Below are positions 31,032-36,150 of a stretch of 64,000 nucleotides of DNA, piece by piece (within the stretch, counting starts at the first letter, position 1; every line of letters starts with the position of its first letter). The stretch is from assembly GCF_017348835.2 (NCBI RefSeq), contig NZ_CP071375.1. The stretch is one strand, 5' to 3'. Made by a program: the position numbers and the translations under genes. The notes under the pieces are model-generated. The model saw nothing but the letters and a program-made list of their open reading frames with translations. It had not been told where the DNA came from and did no database searches. Source of the stretch: Escherichia coli. GTDB taxonomy: Bacteria > Pseudomonadota > Gammaproteobacteria > Enterobacterales > Enterobacteriaceae.

Positions 31032-31055
31032 TGGCCCCGACATCTCGGGGCTTAT
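31032..31055 (+). terminator. Intrinsic terminator after marB
   Basis: GCCCCGA-catc-TCGGGGC hairpin followed by ttatt. Confidence 0.65.
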
Positions 31056-31954
31056 TAACTTCCCACCTTTACCGCTTTACGCCACCGCAAGCCAAATACA
31101 TTGATATACAGCCCGGTCATAATGAGCACCGCACCGAAAAATTGTAGACCCGTTAAGCGTTCATCCAACAATAGTGCCGCACTTGCCAGTCCTACTACGG
31201 GCACCAGTAACGATAACGGTGCAATCCGCCAGGTTTCATAGCGTCCAAGTAGTGTTCCCCAGATCCCATAACCAACAATTGTCGCCACAAACGCCAGATA
31301 CATCAGAGACAAGATGGTGGTCATATCGATAGTAACCAGACTGTGAATCATGGTTGCGGAACCATCGAGAATCAGCGAGGCAACAAAGAAGGGAATGATT
31401 GGGATTAATGCGCTCCAGATTACCAGCGACATCACCGCCGGACGCGTTGAGTGCGACATGATCTTTTTATTGAAGATGTTGCCGCACGCCCAGCTAAATG
31501 CTGCCGCCAGGGTCAACATAAAGCCGAGCATCGCCACATGCTGACCGTTCAGACTATCTTCGATTAACACCAGTACACCAAAAATCGCTAAGGCGATCCC
31601 CGCCAATTGTTTGCCATGCAGTCGCTCACCGAAAGTAAACGCGCCAAGCACGATAGTAAAAAACGCCTGTGCCTGTAACACCAGCGAAGCCAGTCCAGCA
31701 GGCATACCAAAGTTAATGGCGCAGAACAGAAAGGCAAACTGCGCAAAGCTGATGGTTAATCCATACCCCAACAGCAAATTCAGTGGTACTTTCGGTCGTG
31801 CGACAAAAAAGATGGCCGGAAAAGCCACCAGCATAAAGCGCAAACCGGCTAACATCAGCGGTGGCATGTTATGAAGTCCCACTTTGATGACCACAAAATT
31901 TAGCCCCCATACGACCACTACCAGTAGCGCCAACACCCCATCTTTTCGCGACAT
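31055..31954 (-). CDS. eamA: Cysteine/O-acetylserine exporter (DMT family)
   Basis: Polytopic ORF 31055..31975; likely start MSRKDGVLALL. Confidence 0.85.
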   Translation of the reverse strand: MSRKDGVLALLVVVVWGLNFVVIKVGLHNMPPLMLAGLRFMLVAFPAIFFVARPKVPLNLLLGYGLTISFAQFAFLFCAINFGMPAGLASLVLQAQAFFTIVLGAFTFGERLHGKQLAGIALAIFGVLVLIEDSLNGQHVAMLGFMLTLAAAFSWACGNIFNKKIMSHSTRPAVMSLVIWSALIPIIPFFVASLILDGSATMIHSLVTIDMTTILSLMYLAFVATIVGYGIWGTLLGRYETWRIAPLSLLVPVVGLASAALLLDERLTGLQFFGAVLIMTGLYINVFGLRWRKAVKVGS

Positions 31955-32148: not shown

Positions 32149-33336
32149 ATGAACTTATCCCTACGACACTCTACCAGCGCCCTTCTTGCCTCGTCGTTGT
32201 TATTAACCATCGGACGCGGCGCTACGCTGCCATTTATGACCATTTACTTGAGTCGCCAGTACAGCCTGAGTGTCGATCTAATCGGTTATGCGATGACAAT
32301 TGCGCTCACTATTGGCGTCGTTTTTAGCCTTGGTTTTGGTATCCTGGCGGATAAGTTCGACAAGAAACGCTATATGTTACTGGCAATTACGGCCTTCGCC
32401 AGCGGTTTTATTGCTATTCCCCTGGTGGACAGCGTCACGCTGGTGGTACTTTTTTTCGCACTCATCAACTGCGCCTATTCCGTTTTTGCCACAGTGTTGA
32501 AAGCCTGGTTTGCCGACAATCTTTCATCCACCAGCAAAACGAAGATCTTCTCGATCAACTACACCATGCTCAATATTGGCTGGACCGTCGGCCCGCCACT
32601 CGGCACGCTGTTGGTCATGCAGAGCATCAATCTGCCCTTTTGGCTGGCCGCTATCTGCTCTGCGTTTCCCATGTTTTTCATTCAAATTTGGGTAAAGCGC
32701 AGCGAGAAAATCATCGCCACGGAAACAGGCAGTGTCTGGTCGCCGAAAGTTTTATTACAAGATAAAGCACTGTTGTGGTTTACCTGCTCTGGTTTTCTGG
32801 CTTCCTTTGTTAGCGGCGCATTTGCATCATGCATTTCACAATATGTGATGGTGATTGCTGATGGGGATTTTGCCGAAAAGGTGGTCGCGGTTGTTCTTCC
32901 GGTGAATGCTGCCATGGTGGTTACGTTGCAATATTCCGTGGGCCGCCGACTTAACCCGGCTAACATCCGCGCGCTGATGACAGCAGGCACCCTCTGTTTC
33001 GTCATCGGTCTGGTCGGTTTTATTTTTTCCGGCAACAGCCTGCTATTGTGGGGTATGTCAGCTGCGGTATTTACTGTCGGTGAAATCATTTATGCGCCGG
33101 GCGAGTATATGTTGATTGACCATATTGCGCCGCCAGGAATGAAAGCCAGCTATTTTTCCGCCCAGTCTTTAGGCTGGCTTGGTGCCGCGATTAACCCATT
33201 AGTGAGTGGCGTAGTGCTAACCAGCCTGCCGCCTTCCTCGCTGTTTATCATCTTAGCATTGGTGATCATTGCTGCGTGGGTGCTGATGTTAAAAGGTATT
33301 AACGCCAGACCCCAGAGGCAACCAGCACTCTGTTGA
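32149..33336 (+). CDS. ydeE: MFS transporter
   Basis: 395-aa 12-TM ORF. Confidence 0.85.
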   Translation: MNLSLRHSTSALLASSLLLTIGRGATLPFMTIYLSRQYSLSVDLIGYAMTIALTIGVVFSLGFGILADKFDKKRYMLLAITAFASGFIAIPLVDSVTLVVLFFALINCAYSVFATVLKAWFADNLSSTSKTKIFSINYTMLNIGWTVGPPLGTLLVMQSINLPFWLAAICSAFPMFFIQIWVKRSEKIIATETGSVWSPKVLLQDKALLWFTCSGFLASFVSGAFASCISQYVMVIADGDFAEKVVAVVLPVNAAMVVTLQYSVGRRLNPANIRALMTAGTLCFVIGLVGFIFSGNSLLLWGMSAAVFTVGEIIYAPGEYMLIDHIAPPGMKASYFSAQSLGWLGAAINPLVSGVVLTSLPPSSLFIILALVIIAAWVLMLKGINARPQRQPALC

Positions 33337-33376
33337 CGTTCGTGCCGTTCCACTACTGGCACGGCTTCGCTAATCA

Positions 33377-33772
33377 TTATTCTGAGGCAAAGGCATAGCC
33401 TTCATCTTCCCAGCCGGTTATCCCGCCGAGCATGATTTTAACCGGCTTTCCGAGTCGAGCCAGTTTGAGTGCCGCACGGTCTGCACCGTTACAATGTGGC
33501 CCCGCGCAATACACCACAAATAGCGTATCGTCGGGCCATTCGGCCATTCTTTCTGCGGTCATTTGCTTATGGGGTAAATGGAGAGCGCCTGGGATATGCC
33601 GACGCGCGAAGTCCTCTTCACGTCCAACCACATGAAGTAAAACGAAATCATCGCCAATATAAGCCAGAGAGTCATGAACATCGGCGCAATCTGTTTCGAC
33701 ACTCAAGCGCGCGAGAAAATGCGCCTCAGCAACTTCTGGCTTCGCTGTGGTAAATTCAGTGACATAACGCAT
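33377..33772 (-). CDS. Rhodanese-domain protein (putative sulfurtransferase)
   Basis: 131-aa ORF with a rhodanese active-site Cys loop (VVYCAGPHCNGA). Confidence 0.7.
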   Translation of the reverse strand: MRYVTEFTTAKPEVAEAHFLARLSVETDCADVHDSLAYIGDDFVLLHVVGREEDFARRHIPGALHLPHKQMTAERMAEWPDDTLFVVYCAGPHCNGADRAALKLARLGKPVKIMLGGITGWEDEGYAFASE

Positions 33773-33845
33773 ATTGCTTTGTCCTTTTGGTTTGTTGTGT
33801 TAACAATAATGTAACTAATCTACCTTTCACTGACCGCCTCTCGAT

Positions 33846-34838
33846 ATGCCAGAAATGAGCAAAATGATGACAACGTTACAACGTCCGCTGGTCATTGCAC
33901 TGGCATATGACGGGCTATGTACTTTTGAATTTGGCGTTGCCGTTGAAATATTCGGCCTGCCACGACCGGAACTGGGCGATAATTGGTATCGTTTTGCTGT
34001 TGCTGCGGTAGAACCTGGTGCGCTACAAGCCACCGGGGGGATCCACGTGGTTGCAGATGGTGGACTGGAGTTATTGCCCAACGCCGATATGATTATTATT
34101 CCTGGCTGGCGCGGAATAGATGCCAAAGTGCCGGAGATGCTATGCCAGTCATTGCGCGAGGCACACCAGCGCGGTACTCGCCTGGTATCAATATGCTCTG
34201 GCGTGTTTGTCCTTGCTGCTGCGGGCCTTCTTCATCAGCGAAAAGCAACCACCCACTGGCGCTACACTGAACAACTCCAGCACCGTTACCCTTCAATCAG
34301 CGTAAGTGACAATGTGTTATATCAGGATGAAGGACAAGTGATGACCTCCGCCGGAAGCGCCGCGGGGATCGATCTGTGTTTACATATCGTGCGCAAAGAT
34401 TTTGGTCATGAGATTGCTAATAATGTCGCCCGGCGACTGGTCATTCAGCCACATCGCCAGGGGGATCAACCACAAAATCTGACGCGCCCAATGGCCTCAC
34501 CGCGTGAAAGCCAGACGTTAGGTGCCTTATTCGACTTTTTGCAGCAGAATCTGGCACAAACACATACTGTGTCTTCCCTCGCCGAACGGGTAAATATGAG
34601 TCCGCGCACTTTTTTAAGACGTTTTGAGGCGTTAACTGGCATGACGCCCGCCCGCTGGCTGCTCAATGAGCGCTTAATACGAGTACAGGATTATCTGCAA
34701 AATTCGGTTTTTAACATCGAGAAAATTGCCGAGCTGACGGGTTTTGGCAATTCAGCGTTATTGCGTCATCACTTTCACCAACGTTTTTTATTATCTCCTT
34801 CGCAATATCGCAAAAACAGCCGTTCCCCATCACAATAA
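33846..34838 (+). CDS. GlxA/FtrA-like regulator: DJ-1/PfpI domain fused to AraC HTH
   Basis: 330-aa ORF; N-terminal DJ-1/PfpI-like fold with nucleophile-elbow Cys (ICSGVFVLAAAG), C-terminal AraC double HTH. Divergent from the rhodanese gene. Confidence 0.75.
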   Translation: MPEMSKMMTTLQRPLVIALAYDGLCTFEFGVAVEIFGLPRPELGDNWYRFAVAAVEPGALQATGGIHVVADGGLELLPNADMIIIPGWRGIDAKVPEMLCQSLREAHQRGTRLVSICSGVFVLAAAGLLHQRKATTHWRYTEQLQHRYPSISVSDNVLYQDEGQVMTSAGSAAGIDLCLHIVRKDFGHEIANNVARRLVIQPHRQGDQPQNLTRPMASPRESQTLGALFDFLQQNLAQTHTVSSLAERVNMSPRTFLRRFEALTGMTPARWLLNERLIRVQDYLQNSVFNIEKIAELTGFGNSALLRHHFHQRFLLSPSQYRKNSRSPSQ

Positions 34839-34945: not shown

Positions 34946-35041
34946 ATGCTGGGTAATATGAATGTTTTTATGGCCGTACTGGGAATAATTTTATTTTCTG
35001 GTTTTCTGGCCGCGTATTTCAGCCACAAATGGGATGACTAA
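34946..35041 (+). CDS. mgtS: Small membrane protein MgtS (31 aa)
   Basis: ATG at 34946 after GGAGG; translation MLGNMNVFMAVLGIILFSGFLAAYFSHKWDD; below the ORF-track size cutoff. Confidence 0.85.
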   Translation: MLGNMNVFMAVLGIILFSGFLAAYFSHKWDD

Positions 35042-35068
35042 TGAACGGAGATAATCCCTCACCTAACC

Positions 35069-35107
35069 GGCCCCTTGTTACAGTTGTGTACAAGGGGCCT
35101 GATTTTT
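35069..35107 (+). terminator. Intrinsic terminator after mgtS
   Basis: GGCCCCTTGT-tacagttgtgt-ACAAGGGGCC hairpin followed by tgattttt. Confidence 0.75.
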
Positions 35108-35116
35108 ATGACGGCG

Positions 35117-35218
35117 AAAAAAAACCGCCAGTAAACCGGCGGTGAATGCTTGCATGGATAGATTTGTGTTTTGCTTTTACGCTAACAGGCATTTTCCTGC
35201 ACTGATAACGGATCGTTG
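35117..35218 (-). ncRNA. mgrR: PhoP-dependent small RNA MgrR (approximate ends)
   Basis: Minus-strand terminator (ccgccggtttactggcgg + T8, + coords 35117-35142) about 100 nt downstream of a perfect PhoP box; matches the known mgtS-dgcZ intergenic location of mgrR. 5' end estimated. Confidence 0.55.
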
Positions 35219-35247
35219 ACACAGTAGCATCAGTTTTCTCAATGAAT

Positions 35248-35265
35248 GTTAAACGGAGCTTAAAC
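35248..35265 (-). promoter_or_regulatory. PhoP box (GTTTAA-N5-GTTTAA direct repeat)
   Basis: Minus-strand GTTTAAGCTCCGTTTAAC; overlaps the dgcZ stop codon and lies upstream of the inferred mgrR start. Confidence 0.7.
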
Positions 35266-36150
35266 TCGGTTAATCACATTTTGTTCGTCAATAAACATGC
35301 AGCGATTTCTTCCGGTTTGCTTACCCTCATACATTGCCCGGTCTGCTCTTCCAATGACCACATCCAGAGGCTCTTCAGGAAATGCGCGACTCACACCTGC
35401 TGTCACGGTAATGTTGATATGCCCTTCAGAATGTGTGATGGCATGGTTATCGACTAACTGGCAAATTCTGACACCTGCACGACATGCTTCTTCATCATTA
35501 GCCGCTTTAACAATAATGATAAATTCTTCGCCCCCGTAGCGATAAACCGTTTCGTAATCACGCGTCCAACTGGCTAAGTAAGTTGCCAGGGTGCGTAATA
35601 CTACATCGCCGATTAAATGCCCGTAGGTATCATTAACCAATTTAAATCGGTCAATATCCAACAACATTAAATAAAGATTCAGAGGATCAGTGTTGCGTAA
35701 CTGATGATCAAAGGATTCATCAAGAACCCGACGCCCCGGCAATCCCGTCAAAACATCCATATTGCTACGGATCGTCAGCAAATAAATTTTGTAATCGGTT
35801 AATGCCGCAGTAAAAGAAAGCAACCCCTCCTGAAAGGAGTCGAAATGCGCGTCCTGCCAGTGATTTTCAACAATAGCCAGCATTAATTCCCGACCACAGT
35901 TATGCATATGTTGATGGGCAGAATCCATTAGCCGAACGTAAGGTAATTCATCGTTATCGAGTGGCCCCAGATGATCAATCCACCGACCAAACTGGCACAG
36001 TCCATAAGAATGGTTATCCGTTATTTCTGGCTTACTGGCATCTCTCGCGACCACGCTGTGAAACATACTCACCAGCCACTGGTAGTGGGCATCGATAGCC
36101 TTATTGAGATTTAACAAGATGGCATCAATTTCCGTTGTCTTCTTGATCAT
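35260..36150 (-). CDS. dgcZ: Zinc-sensing diguanylate cyclase
   Basis: ORF with N-terminal CZB domain and C-terminal GGEEF; start MIKKTTEIDAIL. Confidence 0.9.
   Translation of the reverse strand: MIKKTTEIDAILLNLNKAIDAHYQWLVSMFHSVVARDASKPEITDNHSYGLCQFGRWIDHLGPLDNDELPYVRLMDSAHQHMHNCGRELMLAIVENHWQDAHFDSFQEGLLSFTAALTDYKIYLLTIRSNMDVLTGLPGRRVLDESFDHQLRNTDPLNLYLMLLDIDRFKLVNDTYGHLIGDVVLRTLATYLASWTRDYETVYRYGGEEFIIIVKAANDEEACRAGVRICQLVDNHAITHSEGHINITVTAGVSRAFPEEPLDVVIGRADRAMYEGKQTGRNRCMFIDEQNVINRV

Follow-up and report, generated by a model that had tools for sequence, protein, structure and literature searches.

A divergent FtrA–rhodanese gene pair in Escherichia coli: a conserved putative regulator–target unit, apparently ancestral and deleted from K-12

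The window analyzed here is a stretch of 64,000 nucleotides of E. coli DNA. Between ydeE and mgtS, it contains two open reading frames only—a rhodanese gene and the regulator gene ftrA. The left flank is formed by ydeE, which is convergent with the rhodanese gene; the right flank is formed by mgtS, followed by mgtT. The features of the locus are the following, with the source of each assignment in parentheses:

32149..33336, plus strand: ydeE, MFS efflux transporter (ORF list and RefSeq annotation of the 99.8%-identical O157:H7 locus)
33377..33772, minus strand: rhodanese gene, 131 aa (ORF list; Pfam)
33773..33866, no strand: divergent intergenic region, 94 bp (sequence; alignments across enterics and alphaproteobacteria)
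33867..34838, plus strand: ftrA, 323 aa (RefSeq start; NCBIfam; Pfam)
34828..34838, plus strand: right edge of the K-12-type deletion (junction alignments)
34946..35041, plus strand: mgtS (RefSeq annotation)
35041–35145: mgtT (RefSeq annotation)
35035..35248, minus strand: STnc560/MgrR sRNA region, flank only (Rfam RF01407, 281.9 bits)

With ydeE ending at 33336 and dgcZ at 35260, the ydeE–dgcZ gap measures 1923 bp, in agreement with the approximately 1.9 kb given in a preliminary description of this DNA. The same description had placed a divergent rhodanese–regulator pair between ydeE and mgtS, beside the mgtS/mgrR locus; the two genes indeed lie on opposite strands, and mgtS and STnc560/MgrR follow directly downstream. 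Among the loci sampled, adjacency of mgtS and ftrA occurs only in Escherichia and Citrobacter amalonaticus, and the FtrA–rhodanese module is not conserved together with mgtS. The two-gene locus is already known: RefSeq annotates its products as "rhodanese-like domain-containing protein" and "transcriptional regulator FtrA," and it is catalogued as O-island 59 of EDL933, in which the regulator is Z2164 and which is absent from MG1655 (PMC2907692).

The rhodanese matches the Pfam family Rhodanese PF00581 over residues 52–123 (E = 3.3e-11), and alignment places its Cys89 at the Cys of the canonical CAGRTRS loop in domain 2 of 1yt8, a thiosulfate sulfurtransferase of P. aeruginosa; the earlier identification as a rhodanese that has a Cys loop at its active site is thereby borne out. 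No signal peptide was found in the 131-residue sequence. An alignment of 15 homologs features three invariant cysteines: Cys29; Cys89 at the catalytic position; and Cys94 in the active-site loop. This loop, part of the motif YCAGPHCNGAD, has six residues with the catalytic-position Cys first. Cys89 is followed by A-G-P-H-C, which places a second Cys inside the loop and leaves His93 as the sole possible charge; the basic residues typical of thiosulfate:cyanide sulfurtransferases are missing. In NCBIfam, no functional equivalog was reached, the best match scoring 26 bits against a cutoff of 115. The nearest solved structure is BH2092 of Bacillus halodurans (3o3w and 3nhv; 1e-17), a structural-genomics rhodanese of the same subfamily, which aligns over residues 10–124 with the N-terminal helix included. 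BH2092 carries the two-Cys loop YCWGPACNGA and has no equivalent of Cys29, and the match gives no functional transfer. Further relatives of solved structure are a thiosulfate sulfurtransferase, fusions of rhodanese and β-lactamase-type domains, and rhodanese fusions with FAD-dependent pyridine nucleotide-disulphide oxidoreductases and an NADH oxidase. The mean pLDDT of an AlphaFold2 model built from the 15 aligned sequences was as low as 57.6, and the model was set aside. The GlpE, PspE, and YgaP proteins of E. coli K-12 are likewise small one-domain rhodaneses. Their catalytic Cys follows a β-strand, and the loops of K-12 single-domain rhodaneses, of the types CYHGNSS and CNAGRQS, carry polar or basic residues and a single Cys—unlike CAGPHC with its second invariant Cys. 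None of the three is known to have a dedicated divergent AraC-type regulator.

FtrA matches the NCBIfam equivalog NF006902 with 555.1 bits (cutoff 425) over residues 3–320 of 323; GbdR is the second-best NCBIfam match (1e-37). In Pfam, the protein features an N-terminal DJ-1_PfpI domain, which is GATase1-like (residues 39–176, 4.5e-18), and a C-terminal AraC-type HTH (HTH_18, residues 238–316, 3.7e-19). The "GlxA-like" DJ-1/PfpI–AraC regulator of the preliminary description is thus recovered as a regulator of the GATR type. The open reading frame spans 33846–34838 on the plus strand; the RefSeq start at 33867 yields 323 aa, and other annotated starts lie at 33846 (330 aa) and 33855 (327 aa, Z2164 of EDL933). 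Glu21, Cys110, Ser111, Gly112, and His130 are invariant across 62 orthologs, Cys110 being the nucleophile-elbow residue within SICSG. The closest solved relative of the sensor domain is the isonitrile hydratase InhA/ICH of the DJ-1 superfamily (approximately 1e-17), whose catalytic Cys101/Thr102 align with Cys110/Ser111. Both proteins have almost the same motifs, S-(I/V)-C-(S/T)-G...AAGLL...ATTHW, and Glu21 corresponds to Asp17 of ICH by manual alignment only. ICH, however, is an enzyme in its own right; in FtrA, the corresponding domain is joined to a DNA-binding one. For the HTH region, the best solved match is the DNA-binding domain of AdpA (3w6v, 1.2e-16). AdpA of Streptomyces shares with FtrA the architecture of a DJ-1-like dimerization domain and an AraC domain; it regulates development pleiotropically through hundreds of targets, whereas FtrA is a putative dedicated regulator of one gene.

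The two genes travel together across classes. A rhodanese-based scan with one genome per species yielded at least 585 species with a relative, and the best 80 loci were examined. In 76 of these 80, which belong to alpha- and gammaproteobacteria, an FtrA ortholog is divergent from the rhodanese gene, and in 72 of the 76 paired loci, the two are directly adjacent with a gap of approximately 90–190 bp. The flanking genes are wholly different between rhizobia, Caulobacter, Methylobacterium, and enterics; the host taxa are mostly soil- and plant-associated. Three genomes carry the rhodanese without FtrA nearby. GATR homologs of 49% identity to FtrA or less have no rhodanese nearby, and in all three of those with called neighbors, the divergent partner is another gene. 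Between the two classes, the rhodanese is 62–78% identical (mostly at least 64%) and FtrA less so (mostly 52–70%). A short MetE-like homocysteine methyltransferase gene (PRK06520, 722 bits) follows the rhodanese gene in 25 of the 80 loci, all of them enteric and none in Escherichia or among the alphaproteobacteria, and in three loci, a secreted MTA/SAH-nucleosidase-like gene lies between rhodanese and ftrA. A word-indexed protein search with FtrA returned close enteric orthologs only; paralogs were reached with an exhaustive representative search. As judged by this synteny, FtrA and the rhodanese appear to form a conserved two-gene regulator–target unit that is widespread in alpha- and gammaproteobacteria. 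The self-contained sensor–effector module envisaged earlier agrees with the persistence of the divergent pair despite changing flanks and with a conserved repeat in the intergenic region.

This repeat is the candidate FtrA operator at 33847..33872 on the minus strand. In the direction of the rhodanese gene, it reads TGTCA-N16-TGGCA, a direct repeat of 21 bp from start to start. The distal half-site (TGACA at 33868–33872 on the plus strand) overlaps with the start codon of ftrA (33867), and the proximal one (TGCCA at 33847–33851) contains the ATG at 33846. Of 73 orthologous intergenic regions, 53 contain the pattern TG[GT]CA-N16-TG[GT]CA, as do approximately none of the shuffled ones, a control that ignores the relatedness of the loci. 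The distance from the repeat to the rhodanese start is roughly constant—89–114 nt at most loci and up to 140 nt. The repeat is common to both classes, the intergenic DNA of which is otherwise unalignable; further TGCCA elements of other taxa are degenerate in E. coli. Conservation in enterics could partly reflect coding constraint, since the proximal half-site contains an in-frame ATG. The alphaproteobacterial proximal half-site has no ATG and, hence, points to a DNA signal rather than coding sequence. For the same reason, use of ATG 33846 as the true FtrA start was rejected as the main explanation of the conservation, although such a contribution is possible in enterics. The recognition site of AdpA, TGGCSNGWWY, begins with TGGC and resembles the conserved TGGCATGATC half-site. 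A promoter scan of the 94-bp region (33773..33866), in which the promoters of both genes are predicted, returned 0 sigma-70 consensus sites, which fits activator-dependent promoters. The three matches of a terminator scan all lie inside coding sequence and are at chance level. FtrA is predicted to bind this repeat.

Within E. coli, the preliminary description had the pair absent from K-12, which proves correct. On K-12-like chromosomes, 126 bp separate the ydeE stop from mgtS, and junction alignments contain no trace of rhodanese or ftrA at this site. The identical empty junction is found in 5025 of 5426 complete genomes, and the pair is carried by 381 (approximately 7%), most of them O157:H7 or O55:H7. 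This skew, together with the listing among O-islands that are specific to EDL933 and missing from MG1655 (PMC2907692), would suit a horizontally acquired island of O157:H7-like pathogens inserted into a K-12-like backbone. Such an origin is largely refuted, and we regard it as highly improbable. The GC content of 0.46–0.55 is similar to that of neighboring genes; a search for flanking direct or inverted repeats gave nothing beyond short matches expected by chance; and the ORF list contains no mobility genes. The carriers fall into two deep alleles, one of O157:H7/O55:H7 type and one of IAI39 type, that are approximately 84% identical—thus approximately 16% apart—at one and the same site, whereas the flanks are 98% identical. 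Moreover, the last 8 bases of ftrA (CACAATAA) are kept at the empty site. E. ruysiae and Pseudocitrobacter have the pair at this site in identical synteny, the order mgtS–ftrA–rhodanese is present in C. amalonaticus, and other enterics likewise carry the genes here. With the site filled in these two relatives, E. ruysiae and Pseudocitrobacter, the pair is ancestral to Enterobacteriaceae and was deleted from K-12 and approximately 93% of E. coli. A single deletion would have removed it from the now-dominant lineage of E. coli alleles, K-12 included. The locus is a clean case of an "O-island" that turns out to be ancestral DNA: most of the species has lost the segment, two deep allelic lineages have kept it, and it is a reminder that absence from K-12 does not mean acquisition.

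The proposal as a whole—an ancestral unit lost by deletion, in which FtrA senses a reactive compound and activates the rhodanese gene—is, in our judgment, probable. FtrA would be a GATR-type activator with a DJ-1/GATase1-like sensor and dimerization domain joined to an AraC DNA-binding domain. Probably as a dimer, it would occupy the two TG(G/T)CA half-sites 21 bp apart, upstream of a weak rhodanese promoter and overlapping the start of ftrA itself. Occupation or covalent modification of the pocket around Glu21, Cys110, and Ser111 by a small reactive compound would render FtrA active; the rhodanese gene would be switched on, probably along with autoregulation. In the cytoplasmic rhodanese, Cys89 would serve as persulfide carrier, and Cys94 of the same loop, possibly with Cys29, would act as resolving or relay thiol. 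The enzyme would thereby transfer or detoxify a reactive sulfur or cyano compound, for which sulfane sulfur, thiosulfate, and cyanide are candidates. Synteny in 76 of 80 loci and the conserved intergenic repeat argue for activation of the neighboring gene by FtrA, and the mode of action would be activation, not repression. A covalent role of Cys110 is suggested rather than implied: characterized GATRs sense amine compounds noncovalently and control catabolic operons, and a conserved elbow Cys is common among them, so that Cys110 alone does not imply thiol sensing. The chemical nature proposed for signal and substrate is likewise inferred, and sulfur or electrophile stress as the signal is a guess. 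The most specific version of the proposal, in which a nonamine species—sulfane sulfur, cyanide or isonitrile, or an electrophile—is sensed covalently at Glu21/Cys110/Ser111 and FtrA induces a two-Cys-loop rhodanese that removes the inducer, is tentative and more doubtful than probable.

FtrA could instead be an ordinary GATR with a reversible, organic amine-like ligand, possibly sulfur-containing such as a sulfonium or thiol betaine analogue, with Cys110 merely lining the pocket and the rhodanese as a catabolic or salvage helper rather than an enzyme of stress detoxification. Every GATR with a known ligand responds to small amines, GbdR is the runner-up in NCBIfam, and soil- and plant-associated hosts would be in keeping with such ligands; the MetE-like and MTA/SAH-nucleosidase-like neighbors are a pointer to sulfur amino-acid metabolism. 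However, the MetE-like gene is confined to enterics other than Escherichia, neither a catabolic enzyme nor a transporter accompanies the pair, and the invariant Glu-Cys-Ser matches the constellation of a catalytically active relative, which leaves this explanation unlikely. Alternatively, the rhodanese-like protein may be no sulfurtransferase effector but a redox enzyme, an arsenate-reductase/phosphatase-type enzyme, or a partner that modifies FtrA or signals to it, for example by persulfidating Cys110, in a two-protein sensor regulating genes elsewhere. The atypical CAGPHC loop with its second Cys and without an Arg/Lys/Ser/Thr pattern would agree with such a role, as would the failure to reach an equivalog. 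The conservation of the rhodanese, unusually high and above that of FtrA, would fit a protein–protein interface. Against this stand the nearest sequence relatives of solved structure, which are sulfur-handling rhodanese domains; the six-residue loop, which has the length of rhodaneses and not the seven residues of Cdc25/Acr2; and the divergent regulator–target layout usual for GATRs. We consider a role of this kind quite improbable.

Relative to the GATR family (GbdR, CdhR, SouR, ArgR, and CahR of Pseudomonas; COG "GlxA"), the proposed activator FtrA shares the two-domain architecture, the elbow Cys, and an adjacent, often divergent target gene. It differs in that FtrA orthologs are locked to a single rhodanese gene, whereas known GATRs control catabolic operons. 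The coupling of FtrA and rhodanese and the operator-like repeat make the pair a simple, testable system for identifying what an uncharacterized GATR subfamily binds and what a rhodanese with a two-cysteine loop does. If covalent sensing were true, FtrA would be the first thiol-based GATR sensor, and a function would be assigned to the "FtrA" and BH2092-type rhodanese families. The stakes are modest, and the locus does not challenge current understanding.

A literature search returned no functional paper on FtrA paired with a rhodanese and no experiment linking FtrA to a rhodanese promoter; most matches are either to a different FtrA, the iron permease of FtrABCD, or bare annotation mentions. 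For Z2163, Z2165, ECs2142, and ECs2143, the search gave only a microarray-control mention of both ECs tags and an unrelated Z2163 match, and for "O-island 59" only the RpoS paper. One paper reports mild acid sensitivity of a Rhizobium tropici strain with a transposon in an FtrA homolog, possibly an ortholog with a rhodanese partner. In EDL933, Z2164 is expressed, with a 6-fold RpoS dependence in stationary phase (PMC2907692, Table 4).

The interval between ydeE and mgtS carries a rhodanese gene and, divergent from it, a gene for a regulator with a DJ-1/PfpI domain followed by an AraC-type helix–turn–helix domain. This arrangement agrees with the preliminary description and is borne out by the Pfam domains. 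The region is laid out as follows:

upstream of ydeE, marA, marB, and eamA (31055-31954, minus strand), from ORF scan and RefSeq annotation
32149-33336, plus strand, ydeE
33377-33772, minus strand, 131-aa rhodanese ORF (Pfam Rhodanese, 3.3e-11)
94 bp, divergent spacer between the rhodanese and regulator ORFs
ending at 34838, plus strand, ftrA ORF of 323-330 aa (DJ-1_PfpI, 4.5e-18, then AraC-type HTH_18, 3.7e-19)
34946-35041, mgtS, then mgtT
35035-35248, minus strand, STnc560 sRNA family, MgrR included
35260-36150, minus strand, dgcZ, then ydeI and ydeJ

The distance from ydeE to dgcZ is 1923 bp, matching the expected gap of about 1.9 kb, and the locus indeed lies beside mgtS/mgrR. This neighbourhood is not conserved with the FtrA–rhodanese module, and a PhoP link of the pair is unsupported. 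The 40-bp spacer between the convergent stop codons of ydeE and the rhodanese gene contains an inverted repeat of 6 bp (CGTGCC...GGCACG) around an 11-nt loop (33341-33363), which could be a shared terminator; a T-run is absent there, and the terminator scan made no call at this repeat.

The pair had been described as absent from K-12, and in a K-12-like chromosome the stop of ydeE and mgtS are indeed only 126 bp apart. Both genes occur in 381 of 5426 complete E. coli genomes (near-full length in 380), always as a single chromosomal copy, and the empty K-12 junction is found in 5025 at a threshold of at least 80% coverage; presence in K-12 or in most E. coli is therefore excluded. Identity to the window is at least 99% in 320 genomes—O157:H7, O55:H7, and O169:H41 among them, with strain PapRG-06-5 at 100%—and only about 84% in 58 genomes with a second allele, e.g. 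IAI39. The O157 strain ATCC 43889 (NZ_CP015853.1, 618898-619361) has nothing left of the pair but the 3' third of ftrA (its last 464 bp), annotated as "helix-turn-helix domain-containing protein"; this truncation arose independently and more recently.

Both genes already have names in RefSeq: WP_001271101.1 is a "rhodanese-like domain-containing protein" and WP_001310251.1 is "transcriptional regulator FtrA", the latter scoring 555 bits against a cut-off of 425 for the curated NCBIfam equivalog NF006902. [quoted passage not shown] A functional study of this FtrA or rhodanese was not found in the literature. The locus is an already catalogued variable region, real and correctly described, but ordinary; this analysis adds, modestly, which way the indel went, the existence of two deep alleles, how widely and strictly the two genes are paired, and a candidate operator.

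The pair is very probably ancestral and deleted from most E. coli. Its GC content (0.46-0.55) is like that of the flanks, and ORF scan and repeat search found neither mobility genes nor terminal repeats at the pair. The order in E. ruysiae is identical, marRAB-eamA-ydeE-rhodanese-ftrA-mgtS-mgtT-dgcZ-ydeI-ydeJ-dcp, and the same cluster takes in E. whittamii and unnamed Escherichia species. Pseudocitrobacter has ftrA-rhodanese-ydeE-eamA-marA, several other enterics share this order except for one further gene, for a short MetE-like methyltransferase, between rhodanese and ydeE, and Citrobacter amalonaticus has mgtS-ftrA-rhodanese. In addition, the empty K-12 site reads ...TGTTGA TTTAAGTCGAA CACAATAA AGATTTAATTCAGCC... 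and retains CACAATAA, which in junction alignments is the final two codons and stop of ftrA followed by shared downstream sequence. Together, these features indicate one deletion of about 1.5 kb and no insertion.

The IAI39-type allele matches the window at 84.7% in the rhodanese gene and 83.2% in ftrA, E. ruysiae at 89.1% and 86.7%: the two E. coli alleles differ more from each other than the window allele does from E. ruysiae. Among E. coli, the flanking mgtS and dgcZ share 98-99% identity; deep allelic lineages, or introgressed copies, therefore exist at this site beside the deletion allele. The eamA gene of the window shows 87.4% identity to that of O157:H7 strain Z563 and 97% to K-12-type and IAI39-type copies, whereas rhodanese and ftrA match O157:H7 at 99.7-100%; recombination has thus made a mosaic of the mar-eamA-ydeE-ftrA stretch, with a very divergent eamA allele in O157:H7.

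When one genome per species was scanned with DFVLLHVV and YCAGPHCN, two motifs of the rhodanese, as seeds, a relative turned up in at least 585 species. In the best 80 loci, the gamma side is represented by Enterobacteriaceae, Pectobacterium, and Rouxiella and the alpha side by many alphaproteobacteria: Ensifer, Mesorhizobium, Agrobacterium, Methylobacterium, Caulobacter, Asticcacaulis, Roseibium, and Azospirillum. An FtrA ortholog lies upstream on the opposite strand in 76 of these 80, mostly at 52-70% identity and, in 72 loci, with a gap of about 90-190 bp; the 76 include locus L089 with a weak, partial match (42%). One of the other four ends at a contig end, and three truly lack FtrA nearby. 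These three—L019 (Enterobacter sp. BIGb0383), L047, and L079 (Labrys)—carry a rhodanese ortholog of 65-75% identity with no FtrA homolog within 6 kb; in L019, loss of the regulator seems to have taken place between dcp and rhodanese. Neighbour-ORF clustering leaves only rhodanese and ftrA common to the whole set. Four homologs at 39-49% identity, of the same GATR class of regulators with a GATase1/DJ-1-like domain and AraC helix–turn–helix, have no rhodanese nearby: three have a PLP decarboxylase, a cyclase, and a lumazine-binding protein as divergent partners, and the fourth is the only gene called on its short contig. Given this contrast with the 76 paired loci, rhodanese pairing is a property of the FtrA orthologous group, and the proposed self-contained module is well supported by comparative evidence.

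Further genes accompany the pair in some loci. In 25 of the 80 (L010-L041 and other enteric loci), rhodanese is followed in the same orientation by a gene for a short MetE-like protein of 367 aa (NCBIfam PRK06520 subfamily, 722 bits), beyond which lies ydeE or an ABC transporter operon of the periplasmic-binding-protein type. The MetE-like gene is absent from Escherichia and Pseudocitrobacter and may hint at a function connected with sulfur amino-acid metabolism. Three loci of Pluralibacter and other Enterobacteriaceae (L025, L033, L040) have an insertion of about 1.18 kb between ftrA and rhodanese, whose gene encodes a 284-aa protein that resembles MTA/SAH nucleosidase (1e-20 to 5e-28) and has an N-terminus like a signal peptide.

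The rhodanese is strikingly conserved, with 62-78% identity between classes in the best 80 loci. The active-site Cys loop noted earlier holds: Cys89 aligns with the catalytic Cys of the canonical CAGRTRS loop. The loop, CAGPHC, contains a second invariant Cys, and a third occupies position 29 in an N-terminal helical extension. BH2092 of Bacillus halodurans, the closest structure, shares the two-Cys loop and gives no function to transfer. Among solved structures, the closest to the sensor domain of FtrA is isonitrile hydratase (~1e-17), with almost identical S-I/V-C-S/T-G, AAGLL, and ATTHW motifs; the catalytic Cys101/Thr102 of the hydratase align with Cys110/Ser111. Glu21, Cys110, Ser111, Gly112, His130, His173, and His196 are invariant in 62 FtrA orthologs, and by manual alignment Glu21 would take the place of Asp17 in the hydratase and Glu18 in DJ-1.

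Among the possible signals, reactive sulfur or cyano species sensed at Cys110 rank first, albeit tentatively. Cys110 is only suggestive of thiol-type sensing because a conserved elbow Cys is common in amine-ligand GATRs. Second comes an organic metabolite, possibly containing sulfur, that would bind reversibly as ligands of other GATRs do; this is a rather unlikely signal. Less likely still, the rhodanese would act as partner or sensor and not as effector.

FtrA probably regulates the rhodanese gene through a repeat element in the intergenic region. Enteric regions share TTGTCAT-N13-TCTGGCAT and alphaproteobacterial ones TTTGGCATGATCTTGAC-N-ATATATGGCAA-N4-TGCCA-N-CTGCCA; the core of both is TG(G/T)CA repeated at 21 bp, i.e. 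two helical turns, present in 53 of 73 regions versus approximately none in shuffles and starting in most loci 89-114 nt upstream of the rhodanese start codon. The best solved match to the FtrA DNA-binding domain is AdpA (1.2e-16), whose site TGGCSNGWWY resembles the conserved half-site TGGCATGATC. FtrA would bind the candidate repeat. The promoter scan found no consensus sigma-70 promoter in the spacer, which fits activator-dependent promoters. In the window, the core lies at 33847-33872; its distal half-site overlaps the ftrA start codon at 33867, and its proximal one includes ATG 33846, a start in some annotations. Because the alphaproteobacterial proximal half-site has no ATG, this half-site is read as a putative DNA signal. 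The 5' end of ftrA carries four in-frame ATGs within 24 bases (33846, 33855, 33864, and 33867), three of which serve as starts in public annotations: 33846 (330 aa), 33855 (327 aa, Z2164), and 33867 (323 aa, RefSeq).
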